Below are positions 19,731-37,964 of a DNA stretch of 64,000 nucleotides, in pieces. How positions within the stretch are numbered: the stretch's first letter is position 1; each line of letters starts with the position of its first letter. The position numbers were made by a program, and so were the translations under genes. The stretch is from Planctomycetota bacterium. GTDB taxonomy: Bacteria; Planctomycetota; UBA8108; SXIK01. The stretch spans positions 8,800,001 through 8,864,000 of the forward strand of contig OZ244999.1 in the NCBI GenBank assembly GCA_965223265.1. Reading direction: 5' to 3'. The notes beneath the pieces were generated by a model. That model was not told the origin of the DNA. It ran no database searches and was given only the letters and a program-made list of their open reading frames with translations.

Positions 19731-19761
19731 GGCGCGGCGGGTCTGAGGGGAGGCAGAGGCG
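19731..19761 (+). other. Conserved leader motif preceding microsatellite (copy 1 of 3)
   Basis: GGCGCGGCGGGTCTGAGGGGAGGCAGAGGCG. Near-identical at 20630 and 34692. Confidence 0.8.
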
Positions 19762-20018
19762 GAGACAGAGACAGAGACAGAGACAGAGACAGAGACAGAG
19801 ACAGAGACAGAGACAGAGACAGAGACAGAGACAGAGACAGAGACAGAGACAGAGACAGAGACAGAGACAGAGACAGAGACAGAGACAGAGACAGAGACAG
19901 AGACAGAGACAGAGACAGAGACAGAGACAGAGACAGAGACAGAGACAGAGACAGAGACAGAGACAGAGACAGAGACAGAGACAGAGACAGAGACAGAGAC
20001 AGAGACAGAGACAGAGAC
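19762..20018 (+). repeat. Perfect hexanucleotide microsatellite (GAGACA)x42 plus GAGAC
   Basis: Read directly. Followed by (GCCCAC)x3 at 20024-20041. Confidence 0.97.
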
Positions 20019-20064
20019 GGGCCGCCCACGCCCACGCCCACGCACAGCGGTGCGGCGGCGATCG

Positions 20065-20243
20065 CGCCGACGGCAGAGAAGAACTCTGCTGCTCTGGGCG
20101 ATCATGCGGCGGCGGTTTTGTCGATCTTAACCGAAGCCGAGCCGGCCTCAAGGGTGCCCTCGCTGCGCTCGGCGCTTCGCGCCCTTGACCCCGTCTCTGC
20201 TTCGGTTGGCGGCAGTGAAACGCCGCCGCGTCGGGCGTCGGCG
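20065..20243 (+). other. Conserved multi-stem structured element upstream of four-helix-bundle gene (core 20148-20188)
   Basis: Core TCAAGGG-TGCCCTCGCTGCGCTCGGCGCTTCGCG-CCCTTGA inside nested IRs (AACCGAAGC/GCTTCGGTT, CGCCGACG/CGTCGGCG). Confidence 0.75.
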
Positions 20244-20274
20244 ACAGGTCACTGGGCCGTTACCGGAGGCACAC

Positions 20275-20598
20275 ATGGGCTTTCTTGCTCTGGATCACAC
20301 TTTTGGCATCGTTCGTCAACTGCGTCCCCTGGTCTCGAGCATCCGTCGTCACGACTCGAAGCTGGCCAATCAGCTGCGCGATGCCGGTTCGTCTGTGGCG
20401 CTCACCCTCGGCGAGGGCAATCGGCGTCAGGGGCGTGACCGCGGGCATCTTTGGCGCGTTGCTTCGGGCAGCGCCGAAGAGGTGCGCACGGCGCTTCGCG
20501 TTGCTGAAGCTTGGGGCTACATCGACCAAGCCGAGGCTGCTGCGGTGCTCACGGACATCGATGAGCTGCAGGCGATGCTTTGGAAGTTGACGCGCTGA
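20275..20598 (+). CDS. Four-helix-bundle protein (23S rRNA intervening-sequence protein / Avd-like family), 107 aa
   Basis: QLRDAGSSVALTLGEG and VASGSAEEV match the family pattern Q.RRAA.S...N..EG / A.GS..E. GGAGG RBS at 20265. Confidence 0.85.
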   Translation: MGFLALDHTFGIVRQLRPLVSSIRRHDSKLANQLRDAGSSVALTLGEGNRRQGRDRGHLWRVASGSAEEVRTALRVAEAWGYIDQAEAAAVLTDIDELQAMLWKLTR

Positions 20599-20629
20599 CG
20601 CGGGAGCTTTGGCCCGCCGTGCGCTATTT

Positions 20630-20793
20630 GGCGCGGCGGGTTTGACGGGGAGGCAGGGGCGGATACGGATACAGAGCCAGAGGCAGAAGCAGAGTCAGAA
20701 CCAGAGTCAGATACGGATACAGAGCCAGAGTCAGAATCAGAGTCAGATACGGATACGGAGTCGGAAGCAGACTACCACGCCCACGCTCACGCG
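20630..20793 (+). repeat. Leader motif copy 2 plus 18 degenerate GANNCR hexamers (20662-20769) and CACGCN x3
   Basis: GATACG GATACA GAGCCA GAGGCA GAAGCA GAGTCA GAACCA... with strict 6-nt phase. Confidence 0.9.
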
Positions 20794-20861: not shown

Positions 20862-21185
20862 TCAGCGGGTGAGCCCGCGAAGAAGTGCTAGCAGGCGATC
20901 GAGCGTCTTGAGCGGAGTGGTGACGTCTTCGTTCTTGAGAACGCCCCAGGCCAGGGCCAGTTGTAGCGCCGTTTCGACCTCGCGCGCACTGCCGCGCGCG
21001 ACGCGAAAGAGGTGCTGGCGATCTTTCCCGGAGCGCTCAGCGCCTTCCGAGAGGTTGAGCGCGACCGAGGAAGCAGCGCGCCGGATCTGCCGGTGCAGGT
21101 CGGGATCGAGCCGCCGAAGCCGCACCAAAGGAGCCCGCAGGTCGCCGATCAAACCGAGACTGACGTCGAGAGCGATGAAGCGCAT
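20862..21185 (-). CDS. Four-helix-bundle protein (23S IVP / Avd-like), 107 aa, copy 2
   Basis: QIRRAASSVALNLSEG and VARGSAREV. GGAGG RBS. Same length and same LTR C-terminal tripeptide as copy 1. Confidence 0.9.
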   Translation of the reverse strand: MRFIALDVSLGLIGDLRAPLVRLRRLDPDLHRQIRRAASSVALNLSEGAERSGKDRQHLFRVARGSAREVETALQLALAWGVLKNEDVTTPLKTLDRLLALLRGLTR

Positions 21186-21263
21186 GTGAAGCCTCCGAAG
21201 AAAAGGTGAGTCAAGAGCCGCCGCGTCCGATCGGCGGTACCTCACCCCCAATGCGGAGCGGAG

Positions 21264-21316
21264 GGACTGTCAAGAGCGCGAAGCGCCGAGCGCAGCGAGG
21301 GCACTCTTGACAGTCC
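21264..21316 (-). other. Conserved upstream hairpin, copy 2
   Basis: 13-bp perfect stem GGACTGTCAAGAG/CTCTTGACAGTCC around the same 27-nt core as 20155-20181. Confidence 0.85.
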
Positions 21317-21369
21317 TGAGCACGGCGTACCATCGACACAACCGCCGTACGGTAAACCGTGTCACAGCT

Positions 21370-21427
21370 CACACACGGTCACGGTCCACGGTCCACGCCC
21401 ACGCCCACGCAAACGCCCACGCAAACG
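21370..21427 (+). repeat. Degenerate CACGGT/CACGCC/AACGCC short tandem repeats
   Basis: Read directly. Confidence 0.8.
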
Positions 21428-34691: not shown

Positions 34692-35130
34692 GGCGCGGCG
34701 GTTTGAGGGGGAGACAGGGGCGAAGACGGATCCAGATCCAGATACGGACCCGACAGTTGCATAAGTTTTCGCAGGAAGGGCTCAGAAACCCTTTCCCTGA
34801 GGTTCGATCGGCAGTTGAGGGACGTCGTGGCGGACCTCACGTTTGGTGAGGGTGACGGTGTGCCGTGTTCCCCCTCGCCCACGCACACCCACACGCAAAC
34901 TCTCACTCAATCGCAATCGCGCACGGGCTGTTAAGGCGCGTCTCTTTTGCAACGTTGGGGACAGAGTCAGAATCAGAGACGGATGGCGGATAGAGATACA
35001 GAAGCAGATGACAGAGTCAGAGACGGATGGCGGATAGAGATACAGAAGCAGATGACAGAGTCAGAGACGGAGACAGACACAGATACAGATACAGATGCAG
35101 AGTCAGAGACGGACTCGGATGACGGAGACA
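34692..35130 (+). repeat. Leader motif copy 3, GANNCR tracts, CAC-type tract and a 44-bp tandem duplication (34973-35060)
   Basis: GGCGCGGCGGTTTGAGGGGGAGACAGGGGCG followed by GATCCA/GATACG. Later GAGTCA/GAGACG/GATACA units. Confidence 0.85.
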
Positions 35131-35166
35131 GGGCCAGACGGTACAGAAGTCGCAGGCGCCGTGAGC

Positions 35167-35194
35167 AGCGCCCGCTACGAAAGCAGCGGGCGCT
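35167..35194 (-). terminator. GC-rich hairpin 3' of four-helix-bundle pseudogene
   Basis: AGCGCCCGCT...AGCGGGCGCT, same stem core as 20823-20848. Confidence 0.55.
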
Positions 35195-35206
35195 TGGGCG
35201 CCTCGC

Positions 35207-35387
35207 TCAGCGCGTGAGGCCGCTGAGAAGAGCTAGGAGTCGATCGAGGGTCTGGAGAGGCACTGAGACGTCTTCGGTCTTGAGATCGCCCCGGGCCACA
35301 GAGAGCTGCAAGGCAGTCTCGACCTCCCGGGCACTGCCGCGGGCAACGCGGTAGAGGTGCAGTCGATCCTCCCCAGCGCGCTCGGCG
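35207..35387 (-). pseudogene. 5'-truncated four-helix-bundle gene (copy 3)
   Basis: C-terminal 59 aa match copy 2 at 46 positions (hand count). Fused directly to half of the upstream hairpin (35388-35400). Confidence 0.88.
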
Positions 35388-35427
35388 AGGGCACCCTTGA
35401 CCACGGGTAGCCCACACTGATGTTGGT

Positions 35428-35877
35428 TTGACGACCGTAACGGTCTTCTATCCCTACCACCCCCTTGCGGGACGCTCTCTGCCGGTCGTTCGGCGGACCT
35501 CGAGAGAACCGCCCTGCTACTTGGTTCAAATCGAGAAGCGCCAGCTCTTGGTGCCGTGCTGGATGACCGAGGAGAGCGCTATGTGGGTGGAGCTGTGTAG
35601 ATCGCCCCACATCGACGTGGAGGAGCTCCTCGTCATTGCGGCGATCGTAGAGTCTCGACTCCAAGAAGCACCATCGTCCATCCTTGACTCAGAACCAACT
35701 CGAACCAAGGAGGAGGACGATGGTGTGGACGCAGCTTACTCTACCGTTCTTGCCGCCGGAAGATCAAAGCGTGCTCGCAGTGCTGAGCGCGAAGGAGCGG
35801 GAGGAAATCGCTCGGGCAGTGGCGATTCTCCTGCAGGCGATCATCGAGAACCACGGTGTGGAGGGCGAGAACGATGA
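35428..35877 (+). CDS. Accessory protein of recombinase element (DUF5372/Y4bD-like)
   Basis: YPYHPLAGRSLPV and VPCWMT motifs typical of small ORFs upstream of this recombinase class. C-terminal third overlaps the next ORF. Confidence 0.6.
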   Translation: MTTVTVFYPYHPLAGRSLPVVRRTSREPPCYLVQIEKRQLLVPCWMTEESAMWVELCRSPHIDVEELLVIAAIVESRLQEAPSSILDSEPTRTKEEDDGVDAAYSTVLAAGRSKRARSAEREGAGGNRSGSGDSPAGDHREPRCGGRER

Positions 35878-35887
35878 GGATCGATAG
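35720..35887 (+). CDS. Small helical accessory protein (55 aa)
   Basis: AAGGAGGAGG RBS. Overlaps the recombinase start. Confidence 0.65.
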   Translation: MVWTQLTLPFLPPEDQSVLAVLSAKEREEIARAVAILLQAIIENHGVEGENDEDR

Positions 35888-37964
35888 CAATCATCCAGGT
35901 GGCGTCACTACCGAGCACCTCAGGCGCGCGGCAGTAGTATACATTCGTCAATCGTCGCCAACACAGGTGAAGAACAACGAAGAGAGCACGCGCCTGCAAC
36001 GCGAACTGAGGCACAAGGCGGTCGATCTTGGCTGGCGCGAGCCGATTCTCATCGAGGACGATCTCGGCGAGTCGGCTTCTGGATTCGTCGATCGCCCCGG
36101 CTTCGAGAAACTGAAGAGCTGGGTCATTGCCGGGGAAGTCGGGATTATCTTCTGTCTCGAGATTTCCCGACTGTCGAGGAATTCGGTGGACTGGGCGCGA
36201 CTGATGGAGCTTTGTCAGCACTTCAATACGCTGATCGCGGACACCGAGCAGGTCTACGATCTGTCGCTCTCTAACGACAGACTGTTGATCGGCATCCGTG
36301 GCTCGATCTCAGAAGCCGAGCTTGCGACGATTCGCTTGCGATTGCGCCTAGGTCAGCAGGCGAAAGCGAAGCGAGGTGAGCTGTGGATTCAGTTACCGAT
36401 CGGCTACGTCTACGACGACACTGAGATTGTCTTCGATCCCGACGAGAGAATCCGTACCGCGATCCGCCGTGTCTTTCAGGACTTCCGTGGCTCCAGTAGT
36501 GCCCGACAGCTCGCATTGCATTACCGAGACGCGGGGATCGAGTTTCCGAGTCGGGGCTTGGGCAACAAGACGGTCAGGTGGGCGGTGCCGTCGGCCAAGT
36601 CGCTACACAACCTCCTGGTCAATCCGACCTATGCTGGAGTCTACGCTTGGGGTCGTTCAAGGACGACAAGCAAGATCGCCGATGGGAGGCTGGTCAAACA
36701 GCGTGAACGTCGGCAAGATCCTGGTGAAGCTCGGGTGATGATCCGTGACCATCACCCAGCCTACATCGATTGGTCAGAGTACGAAGCGAACTTGAAGAAG
36801 CTATCGCAGAATCGACCGCGAAGAGGGCTCGACGGCAACCGAGGAGCCGCGCGGGAAGGCCAGGCTCTCCTGGCGGGGATGTTGCGTTGTGGTCACTGTG
36901 GCGATCAGCTGAAGGTCCGGTACCGATACGAGAAGGCCTTCTATTACTGCGACGGCACACGAAAGGGGAACTCACGCATTTGTCTCTCTGTTGGGGCATG
37001 TCGCGTTGACCCGATCGTCGCGCAGCAGTTGTGTCGAGCGCTTGACTCCTCGGGGATCGAGGCTGCGACCAGGGCGTTCGAGCAGATCGAGAAGAGCCGA
37101 GCCGACGAGTTGAACTACGCGAAGCAGCAGGTCGAGGCTGCGCAGTACGCCGCCAGTCATGCATTCGAACAGTTCGACGCGTGCGATCCGAGGAATCGCC
37201 TTGTTGCGGACAACCTCGAGAAACGTCTCAACGACAAGCTTCAGCGGCTTGCCGAGGCAAAGGAGACACTCCACAAGCAGCAGTCGTCGAGATTGACGTT
37301 GACTGTCGCAGAGCGAAAACGTCTCGAGACTCTCGCACGGAACTTCCAGTTGGTCTGGCGATCGACGATTGATGTCAGGCTGAAGAAGACTCTGCTGCGA
37401 GCAGCGATTCACGAGATCATGATCAAGGAGAGCGGCGAGCTCGTTGGATCCAATCGGCAAAGTCGCCGCCTGGAATTGACGATTCACTGGAAGGGCGGCG
37501 TACACTCTACCTCCGAGCTGTTGCGATTCCCCTCTCCGAAGGCATCAAGGGAAGTTTCGGTGCTCGAGCTGATCAAGCGGCTCAGCGCCGCGGCGCATAG
37601 TGACAGCGAGATTGCCTTAGTGCTTAACAGACGAAGGCTCACGACCACACGGTGGACCAAAGACAAGGTGACCGAATTTCGCAAACACAACGGTATCAAT
37701 TCAGCGCAGTCCTCCGATGATGCGTTGTCGATGAACGGCGCCAGCAAGTACCTAGGAGTTTCCTCGATAGCATTACGTACGCTTGTCGAACGAGGATTGA
37801 TCAGGAAAAACCAAGTCGCCGAGTTCGCCCCCTGGCGCGTCTCTCGCCACGAGCTGGACTCCCCAGGAGTCCGGAGCCTCGTGGCGACGCTCAAGGCGAC
37901 GGGTCGATTCCCGCCTAAGGAGGGCTGCGCGAAGAACCAGATGACGCTCTTCGACGACCTATGA
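35874..37964 (+). CDS. Large serine recombinase (resolvase, recombinase, Zn-ribbon/coiled-coil and C-terminal HTH-like domains)
   Basis: YIRQS catalytic motif, EDDLGESASG, EISRLSRN, NPTYAG, CGHCG...C..C. Confidence 0.95.
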   Translation: MRIDSNHPGGVTTEHLRRAAVVYIRQSSPTQVKNNEESTRLQRELRHKAVDLGWREPILIEDDLGESASGFVDRPGFEKLKSWVIAGEVGIIFCLEISRLSRNSVDWARLMELCQHFNTLIADTEQVYDLSLSNDRLLIGIRGSISEAELATIRLRLRLGQQAKAKRGELWIQLPIGYVYDDTEIVFDPDERIRTAIRRVFQDFRGSSSARQLALHYRDAGIEFPSRGLGNKTVRWAVPSAKSLHNLLVNPTYAGVYAWGRSRTTSKIADGRLVKQRERRQDPGEARVMIRDHHPAYIDWSEYEANLKKLSQNRPRRGLDGNRGAAREGQALLAGMLRCGHCGDQLKVRYRYEKAFYYCDGTRKGNSRICLSVGACRVDPIVAQQLCRALDSSGIEAATRAFEQIEKSRADELNYAKQQVEAAQYAASHAFEQFDACDPRNRLVADNLEKRLNDKLQRLAEAKETLHKQQSSRLTLTVAERKRLETLARNFQLVWRSTIDVRLKKTLLRAAIHEIMIKESGELVGSNRQSRRLELTIHWKGGVHSTSELLRFPSPKASREVSVLELIKRLSAAAHSDSEIALVLNRRRLTTTRWTKDKVTEFRKHNGINSAQSSDDALSMNGASKYLGVSSIALRTLVERGLIRKNQVAEFAPWRVSRHELDSPGVRSLVATLKATGRFPPKEGCAKNQMTLFDDL

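Follow-up and report, generated by a model that had tools for sequence, protein, structure and literature searches.

Two four-helix-bundle (4HB) genes that converge in the chromosome of a Planctomycetota bacterium are each preceded by the same hairpin, and the locus raises the question of what this hairpin does and on which strand it does it. The genes lie in a stretch of 64,000 nucleotides (nt) of assembly GCA_965223265.1 (contig OZ244999.1, positions 8,800,001 to 8,864,000), referred to here as the window. The hairpin was first recorded in a preliminary description as a 41-nt element in two copies that may function as single-stranded DNA (ssDNA) rather than RNA. The observation is confirmed and enlarged here: the element is a gene-linked, covarying fold-back whose apex recurs across phyla. 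The mechanism that we tentatively prefer, with a probability of about 0.4, is a promoter formed on a folded single strand or an extruded cruciform, and its main rival, a structured leader RNA, is possible but doubtful.

The fold-back and its two copies in the window

The 27-nt core of the hairpin, TGCCCTCGCTGCGCTCGGCGCTTCGCG, is found exactly at 20155-20181 on the forward strand and at 21277-21303 on the reverse strand. These are the only two exact copies in the window, and none of 100 shuffles (0/100) gave a match. The stem that closes the core reads TCAAGGG/CCCTTGA in copy 1 (20148-20154 and 20182-20188) and TCAAGAG/CTCTTGA in copy 2, a truly compensatory replacement of G-C by A-T. Further out, AACCGAAGCCGAG pairs with CTCTGCTTCGGTT in copy 1 with one C.T mismatch, and GGACTG pairs with CAGTCC in copy 2, the two outer stems being unlike in sequence. 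The hairpin ends 86 nt from the ATG at 20275 (forward strand) in copy 1 and 84 nt from the ATG at 21185 (reverse strand) in copy 2, and the minus strand carries both GCGAAGC and GCGCAGC. On all of these points, from the identical core to the spacing of about 85 nt, the preliminary description is borne out.

The boundaries of the element have to be redrawn. A hairpin of 41 nt is present as described, but it is only the apex of a fold-back of approximately 125 nt that runs from the U1 box to the D1 box (20106-20229 in copy 1; Table 1). In alignments the outer stem is variable in sequence, and the apical helix P2 follows (G)TCAAGGN/N'CCTTGA(C). It is followed by an 18-nt conserved bulge on the 5' side, T-K-CCCTCGCT-N-Y-GCTCGG (UKCCCUCGCUNYGCUCGG in sense RNA letters), and by a mini-hairpin, P3, of 3-4 bp that reaches 7 bp in some copies. 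Further out, type B and other genera share a conserved internal loop (GTGCTCG vs CTGCGCKC), and the U1:D1 complementarity is kept with different sequences in different genera. A half copy had also been described at 35385-35400. A piece of the core does lie at 35386-35403 on the reverse strand, but the site is a rearranged remnant, because it consists of a type-C 5' flank (for unit types, see below), GTCAAGGGTGCCCT and an inverted core piece.

Covariation and loop sequences

Pairing was assessed in 83 sequences, of which 61 are from metagenomes, 17 from the window's genome (G000) and 5 from G006, a genome of the same order but of another family. In this set 89.8% of cells pair, compared with 75.0% in shuffles, none of which (0/500) reaches the observed value, and sliding the partner reduces pairing to 31-41% of cells. 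The question of significant covariation, raised in the preliminary description, is answered by a strong signal (score 0.318 vs 0.084) to which P2 and P3 contribute. Within P2, for which the counts are biased because metagenome rows were required to have six of the seven bases complementary, five of seven pairs are invariant, the sixth (20-54) is GC in 78 sequences and AU in 5, and the seventh (21-53) is GC in 40, CG in 29, AU in 8 and UA in 6, with no unpaired cell among the 83. The P3 pair 42-50 is CG in 50, GC in 27, AU in 5 and other in 1. Without the P2 filter, 96 complete, non-redundant and non-permuted metagenome copies have a perfect 7-bp P2 in 62 cases, one mismatch in 25, two in 6 and three in 3; the seventh pair is Watson-Crick in 87/87 unfiltered metagenome copies with at most one mismatch. 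A helix with five invariant pairs and covarying sixth and seventh pairs, and containing TTGAC, suggests a helix that is read by its sequence.

The loops of P3, in sense letters, are TNC in 66 of the 83 sequences (TTC 40, TGC 14, TCC 7 and TAC 5), TNT in 6 and other in 11. On the opposite strand the loops are GNA in 66/83, with A, C, G and T all represented as N. The N-Y positions of the bulge repeat the pattern T-N-Y between GC...GC, which is GC-RNA-GC on the opposite strand (R and N being ambiguity codes). The minus-strand sequences GCGAAGC and GCGCAGC have the G-N-A loop, C-G closure and GC stem of GNA mini-hairpins. To our knowledge, UNC triloops, the sense-strand counterpart in RNA, have no known stability. 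PMC13037366 describes C(GNA)G and GCGNAGC mini-hairpins as exceptionally stable DNA structures and places them at ssDNA priming sites (phage G4 ori, RSF1010 ssiA) and in the N4 hairpin promoters.

Copies in the genome and linkage to 4HB genes

The window's genome is a single 9.18-Mb contig, and the two copies in the window are a small part of its complement. A search allowing up to three mismatches gives 39 core copies (22 exact, 13 with one mismatch and 4 with two), no further copies appear at up to five mismatches, and a reversed control pattern gives 0 matches. The covariance model identifies 41 elements; the two additional ones are located at 7738825, where a degenerate copy precedes a 'coreless' gene, and at 3154742, where a remnant stands without a gene. 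In 36 of the 39 cases the core is followed on the same strand by a 4HB open reading frame (ORF) of 98-121 aa that starts 46-109 nt after it. PF05635 matches occur at 38 places, and 37 of these 38 genes have the element upstream, so it is not a generic repetitive extragenic palindrome (REP). This disposes, for G000, of the caveat that the hairpin could belong to a REP family unlinked to the gene, but outside the phylum the apical module does occur without a 4HB gene nearby. The single exception is the gene at 5176314 (L058), where hairpin and leader are precisely deleted between the near-repeats cgTAACCG and cgTTACCG, leaving U1 box-gatcgTTACCGGAGTCACACATG. This hairpin-less gene could provide expression studies with a natural control.

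Three types of unit, A, B and C, are distinguished (16, 14 and 5 of 35 scored). Between types A and B the proteins are 49.9% identical and the coding sequences 54.7%, compared with 98.0% for the 27-nt core. Seven loci are convergent pairs of one type-A gene and one type-B or type-C gene, 1.1-1.35 kb apart (Table 1), which hints that two paralogue classes work together. Rearrangements of the core include a recombinant or chimeric copy at 8372042, the replacement of the flank in type C, the inverted remnant at 35386-35403 and the hairpin deletion at 5176314.

Distribution beyond the genome

Three other genomes of the same family contain neither the core nor PF05635. G006 has at least 13 PF05635 matches, with a homologous hairpin and leader in the loci that were read; it displays independent compensations (GAG/CTC and GGA/TCC) and a P3 that is longer by one A-T pair. 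The covariance-model search proposed in the preliminary description covered a sample of 150 other genomes of the phylum, 4 of which gave matches. In G043, G120 and G143 the start of a PF05635 gene follows the model match by 4-31 nt in all of the loci examined (7/7), and by 28-31 nt in the ATG-start loci of G120 and G143. Two weak model matches in G138 are not followed by a PF05635 gene. Different long hairpins are located directly upstream of 4HB genes in G005 (L039), G009 (L040) and G010 (L046), which belong to the same order, and the palindrome of G005 is perfect and includes the ribosome-binding site (RBS) AAGGGAGG.

Outside the phylum, the apical module is found in genomes labelled Thermoanaerobaculia, Acidobacteriota and Gemmatimonadaceae as well as in L147 and L157, with 1-7 copies each, and in at least 121 metagenome loci. 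The metagenome copies cap hairpins of approximately 170-190 nt with stems unrelated in sequence. No 4HB gene was identified within 400-1500 nt of the non-planctomycete copies, either with a hidden Markov model of 36 G000 proteins or with Pfam on ORFs, the Pfam analysis covering 150 of the 387 ORFs (95 aa or longer) in the flanks, 150 of the 203 frames downstream and 104 ORFs in eight genome loci. The identifiable neighbours encode AbiEii/AbiEi (twice), MobA/MobL, Gp49 (three times), DUF2283, DUF5131 and fragments of ISL3 and rve_3, next to ordinary genes. An 18-mer scan of genome contigs gives at least 118 loci, where we estimate hundreds by chance; most are considered chance matches because all but five lack a P2 complement. 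Viral contigs contain 38 raw 18-mer matches.

Comparison with Rfam 15, also proposed earlier, gives no covariance-model match for the hairpin at E values up to 10, and none for five other loci at E values up to 1. The literal core sequence was not found in literature searches. A BLASTN search with 20125-20210 against 72,556 plasmid records returned no match, and a metagenome copy as the query returned three weak partial matches. One of these three is a degenerate module, CCAAGGGCGCCGCTGCGCGGCGGCTGCGCCGGCCTTGAC, located between convergent genes in an intergenic region of the alphaproteobacterial plasmid NZ_CP081066.1 from Leisingera caerulea (L363, 2500-2550). The apical module is a cross-phylum element of which no description was found in the literature searches or in Rfam.

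A circularly permuted form in attC-like sites

Eleven metagenome copies belong to a family that resembles integron attC sites. It has AT-rich flanks, ends matching RYYYAAC and GTTRRRY (e.g. ATCTAAC...GTTAGGC) and an additional base in one arm (CTC[C]TGCCG vs CGGCAGAG), and three copies are spaced approximately 550 nt apart on one 1.6-kb contig. At the permuted junction a loop caps P2, P3 is open-ended and runs on as the main attC stem, and bulge and stem are joined by the same two base pairs (CG...CG). A linear duplex site would not survive this permutation, and the module must therefore act through its fold. The attC top strand corresponds to the sense strand of the module, which places the GNA loops on the bottom strand. 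The bottom strand of attC is the one that recombines.

Promoter-like hexamers and a proposed single-strand promoter

On the strand opposite the gene, P2 supplies TTGACN, and TAnnnT follows 15-16 nt on in types A and B of G000, in G006 and in G043. Among 107 representatives chosen at less than 85% identity, 22 have TAnnnT 15-18 nt after TTGNNN on the template arm, and none (0/107) has it on the sense arm. The hexamer is present in 13/18 representatives of G000, 2/2 of G006, 3/3 of G043, 0/2 of G120 and 0/1 of G143. Its positions 1, 2 and 6 are kept and positions 3-5 vary (TACGAT, TACACT, TAAGCT, TACCAT, TAGCGT and others), and both G120 copies have, by eye, TGnTAnnnT at 14 nt. When the template strands of 50 elements are folded as DNA, the hexamer pair is present in 38. 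Of these 38 predicted folds, 31 pair T(-12) and 35 leave A(-11) unpaired; 14 form a bubble of 10-15 nt and, beyond it, a duplex of 3-11 bp. In seven type-B or type-A copies the duplex that follows the bubble is the 9-11-bp U1:D1 helix. A consensus scan detected no duplex sigma-70 promoter for either window gene, and consensus promoter scans upstream of the G120 copies gave nothing consistent.

This arrangement is consistent with an Frpo-like promoter of the 4HB gene that would be active on a single strand or a cruciform. A template strand that became single-stranded or was extruded as a cruciform would present a pre-opened promoter of the sigma-70 type, as Frpo and ssi do. The invariant P2 would serve as the duplex -35 (TTGACN), and TAnnnT would be positioned 15-16 nt on, where the stem would stay paired through T(-12) and open at A(-11). 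The unpaired bubble would come next and U1:D1 would act as a 'downstream duplex', so that RNA polymerase travelling from apex to base would copy the template arm and read on through the leader to the 4HB gene. The template strand also carries the two mini-hairpins of GNA type, which may nucleate and stabilise the fold. The recurrence of the module, circularly permuted, in attC-like sites, a context that is active as a single strand, and its occurrence near MobA/MobL, AbiE, Gp49 and ISL3 genes are counted in favour of such a promoter. Anatomy, gene linkage, covariation and hexamer positions are established; beyond them we infer that the strand folds in the cell, that polymerase makes use of the folded form and that some factor binds to the 18-nt bulge.

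Several observations weigh against a single-strand promoter. The spacer of 15-16 nt (14 nt in G120) is shorter than the 17-nt optimum, and the type-A -35 hexamer has 4/6 matches and two G.G mismatches in the fold. TAnnnT is lacking in 12 of 50 elements, which comprise the type-C copies (with intact genes), three copies with CACCAT and G143; it is found in 4/76 metagenome representatives and 0/5 from genomes of other phyla. The hexamer is thus rare outside the 4HB-linked lineages, and a promoter cannot be the general role of the module. Minimum-free-energy (MFE) folding fills the bubble with small local pairs in 24 of the 38 folds. The units are chromosomal and occur in both orientations, the BLASTN search of plasmid records was empty, and read as a duplex promoter the hexamers would face away from the gene. 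The choice of strand is also contested by the folds. RNA folding favours the sense strand, with -28.0 kcal/mol (z -2.59) for copy 1 and -36.1 kcal/mol (z -6.39) for copy 2, compared with -24.3 (z -0.67) and -32.6 (z -4.37) for the opposite strands, and DNA folding scores the two strands about equally. Wobble counts amount to 4 G.T vs 16 A.C in outward gapless stems and to 50 G.U vs 33 A.C among isolated 1x1 mismatches, the latter being dominated by two recurrent positions. What stands of the earlier proposal of an ssDNA function is the GNA pattern in 66/83 P3 loops and in the inner GC-RNA-GC, together with the -35/-10 pair on the same strand; the RNA folds speak for the sense strand instead, and DNA folds and wobble leave the two strands undecided.

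A wider form of the single-strand promoter reading is unlikely. In it the apical module, made up of two stacked helices, the 18-nt bulge and GNA triloops on the complementary strand, would be a hitherto undescribed cross-phylum ssDNA structural element of mobile DNA that is reused, also in permuted form, in attC sites, in stand-alone hairpins of approximately 190 nt and in fold-back promoters. The 4HB genes would then be expressed specifically when the DNA is single-stranded during transfer, replication or repair, and read-through RNA would be silent with its RBS hidden by the hairpin. Promoter and leader RNA could also be combined, in that read-through RNA carrying the full hairpin could hide the RBS and transcripts starting inside the fold would not.

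Alternative explanations

The strongest alternative to the promoter is that the sense strand forms a structured 5' leader RNA. The fold-back would then be transcribed with the gene and control its translation or processing. It would possibly hide the RBS, or form a site for RNase III or for a protein, possibly the 4HB protein itself. The element lies upstream on the same strand as the gene, with a fixed position and orientation 28-109 nt before the start codon in five genera, and its strong covariation and conserved loops and bulge are as in RNA motifs. MFE folds close the whole leader, and sense RNA folds score better than antisense ones. The basal helix pairs with the Shine-Dalgarno region in G120 and G143 (CUCCUUA/UAAGGAG and GGCUUCCUU/AAGGAAGCU), and the Shine-Dalgarno region of G000 imitates the 5' arm and, by eye, could pair with the 3' arm. 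G143, which has no -10-like hexamer, nevertheless has a long perfect hairpin. A leader RNA would, however, need an unseen promoter inside or beyond the microsatellite that lies upstream of U1, where none was found, and it leaves the combination of invariant TTGAC, one-armed TAnnnT and GNA pattern unexplained. UNC triloops are not known for stability in RNA and their complement is the DNA motif GNA, no Rfam match was obtained, and most copies outside the Planctomycetota have no consistently placed ORF after them. A leader RNA is accordingly held possible, with more doubt than belief.

An ordinary duplex-DNA site, either a TTGACN-15/16-TAnnnT promoter that fires away from the 4HB gene, in the direction of the repeats and adjacent genes, or a palindromic operator, is improbable. 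Hexamer order and strand are right for outward transcription, and in a second repeat family of G000 the same word stands between two direct TTGAC repeats, but covarying stems, U1:D1 complementarity, circular permutation and GNA loops would all go unexplained.

Still less credence is given to an attC-like or other folded-strand recombination site, with the unit as a mobile cassette. This proposal draws on the permuted module inside RYYYAAC...GTTRRRY sites with their extrahelical base and three copies approximately 550 nt apart, on the hairpin base TAAC...GTTG of G000 and G006, and on the core rearrangements listed above (8372042, type-C flank, 35386 and 5176314). The R boxes of the window copies are only partial: they read TCTTAAC...GTTGGCG and GGTACGC...ATTGGGG, with no more than AAC/GTT shared, and complete boxes occur only in the permuted metagenomic family. 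G000 contains no integron integrase (best TIGR02249 score 96 bits vs a cut-off of 265) and no cassette arrays in the same orientation, its units being single or convergent pairs, and its one Y1 transposase match is weak (Y1_Tnp, 27 bits). Each hairpin is also situated 5' of the gene that it belongs to and has diverged together with that gene, A with A and B with B.

A selfish palindrome without a function of its own, kept uniform by gene conversion, deserves hardly any credence: it would account for a core that is near-identical across diverged paralogues and for chimeric copies, but conversion within a genome is insufficient because the module is also conserved in other phyla, where the stems are unrelated, and in its permuted state. 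An rRNA mimic, or an intervening sequence (IVS) in place, was rejected because the 23S gene (2007925-2010917) has no similarity to the element beyond chance words of 7-10 nt.

Other features of the window and genome

The coordinates of the units and surrounding repeats are given in Table 1.

Table 1. Location of the features discussed. Positions are those of the window, except for the convergent pairs, which are numbered on the contig (G000:C1).
Feature	Position	Strand	Details
Hexamer microsatellites upstream of unit 1	19750-20043		(GAGACA)x45 then (CGCCCA)x3.5
U1 box, unit 1	20106-20115	+	GCGGCGGCGG; complementary to D1 (20221-20229), closes the fold-back
-10-like hexamer, unit 1	20124-20129	-	TAAGAT; template strand; T(-12) is the last paired stem base
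5' outer arm	20129-20147	+	pairs with 20189-20207
-35-like hexamer, unit 1	20146-20151	-	TTGAGG; template strand; 16 nt from the -10-like hexamer
Apical module, copy 1	20148-20188	+	41 nt; P2 20148-20154/20182-20188; bulge TGCCCTCGCTGCGCTCGG 20155-20172; P3 CGC-TTC-GCG 20173-20181
3' outer arm	20189-20207	+	
Unpaired stretch and D1 box, unit 1	20208-20229	+	13 nt unpaired (20208-20220), then CGCCGCCGC (20221-20229)
Gene 1, type-A 4HB	20265-20598	+	RBS GGAGG 20265-20269; ATG 20275; 107 aa; stop 20596-20598; PF05635 53.6 bits; TIGR02436
GC-rich hairpin then TTTG, 3' of gene 1	20612-20644	+	terminator-like by eye; conserved among units
CAGAGT-like hexamer array	20672-20760		between the two convergent 4HB genes
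Gene 2, type-B 4HB	20862-21185	-	107 aa; PF05635 56.9 bits; TIGR02436
D1 box, unit 2	21232-21237	-	sense CCGCCG; complementary to U1 at ~21340-21347
Apical module, copy 2	21270-21310	-	41 nt; core 21277-21303; stems TCAAGAG/CTCTTGA
-35- and -10-like hexamers, unit 2	21307-21333	+	template strand; TTGACA 21307-21312, 15-nt spacer, TACCAT 21328-21333
Hexamer arrays upstream of unit 2	21374-21427		CACGGT, CCACGC
Core remnant, truncated and inverted	35386-35403	-	type-C 5' flank, GTCAAGGGTGCCCT, then inverted core piece
Convergent pairs	G000:C1		7189146/7190501, 7450410/7451759, 8303186/8304529, 8370692/8372042
Convergent pairs	G000:C1		8820155/8821277 (window), 8978417/8979555, 9141542/9142851

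The terminator-like hairpin 3' of gene 1 was not called by a consensus terminator scan. The hexamer arrays on the two sides of the window genes have no mutual complementarity. Across the genome there are 285 arrays of period 6 or 12, 60 of them no more than 1 kb from a unit, and hexamer repeats are also found upstream of 4HB genes in G043, G143, G006 and G005 (GGGAAA, AGCCAG, CAGAGA and CGGACT). The CAGAGA array of G006 can pair with TCTCTCTG in the leader.

The core remnant at 35386-35403 adjoins hexamer repeats, and the minus strand of this region (34947-37964) has an apparent truncated 4HB gene of type B or C. A nearby ORF of 702 aa (35856-37964, forward strand) resembles a large serine recombinase by eye. 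A second, non-coding repeat of G000, of approximately 198 nt, carries the same word as the element (CCTCGCTGCGCTCGG, in some cases twice), with a small hairpin after it and direct TTGAC repeats on both sides. This repeat is located at 403600-404200 (three tandem copies), 5606570, 5652488, 5870100 and 9028022 of the contig and abuts hexamer arrays, with one set directly upstream of the 4HB unit at 404469. Four further places on the contig (96878, 2249231, 3519399 and 3569525) have identical scores for a tyrosine-recombinase model and open frames of 316-352 aa, and they probably represent a multi-copy mobile element.

Relation to known systems and significance

The closest parallel to the proposed promoter is provided by the Frpo and ssi promoters. 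In PMC11541004, a fold-back of one strand is described as creating a duplex with -35 and -10 from which host RNA polymerase transcribes an adjacent small gene on ssDNA; these promoters mimic duplex DNA on the entering single strand and stand before small early genes on plasmids. As in the Frpo/ssi elements of F and ColIb-P9, TTGACN and TAnnnT lie on the would-be non-template arm, and the pair is recovered in silico in 38/50 elements. The present element differs in its 41 chromosomal copies, both orientations, short spacer and absence of plasmid sequence similarity, and its GC-rich conserved apical module has no known counterpart in Frpo. With GNA priming sites and the N4 promoters it shares GCGNAGC or C(GNA)G loops on short stems (GCGAAGC, GCGCAGC and 66/83 P3 loops), but no context of a primase or N4-type polymerase was found and the loops sit inside a larger three-part module. 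Integron attC sites are folded single-strand sites with variable stems, and one attC-like metagenomic family holds the permuted module with GNA on the bottom strand; the window copies differ in having no full R boxes, integrase or cassette arrays.

Among RNAs, 6S RNA mimics an open promoter: it forms a long hairpin in which duplexes enclose a bubble at the centre, and it is encoded by a single-copy gene. The likeness lies in the bubble between duplexes, but the element has no Rfam match to 6S. REP and bacterial interspersed mosaic elements are likewise short, repeated, GC-rich palindromes. The present element differs from them in being tied to one gene family (37/38), in the conservation of its apex, and not its ends, across phyla, and in that no REP-associated tyrosine transposase partner was found beyond the single weak Y1_Tnp match at 27 bits. 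The IVSs of 23S rRNA that bear an ORF are treated in PMC4990558 as selfish elements cut by RNase III. Those of Coxiella and Leptospira (S23p) resemble the units in combining the same gene family, PF05635, with long hairpins. An IVS sits in helix 25 or 45 of 23S rRNA, its ORF lying between ends that pair, but here the element lies outside rRNA and the hairpin is 5' of the ORF and does not enclose it.

The 4HB '23S rRNA intervening-sequence' proteins are abundant and are relatives of Avd, the accessory protein of diversity-generating retroelements. Outside these retroelements we know of no function for them. A fixed and conserved control element before their genes gives a direct experimental handle on this family, and it is plausibly a promoter active only on folded ssDNA. 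Because the apical module covaries well, crosses phyla and is absent from Rfam, it deserves a curated model whatever its mechanism. If the single-strand promoter is correct, such promoters would not be confined to enterobacterial plasmids and their leading regions but would also occur in planctomycete chromosomes, and the module would link them structurally to attC sites and other hairpins of mobile DNA.

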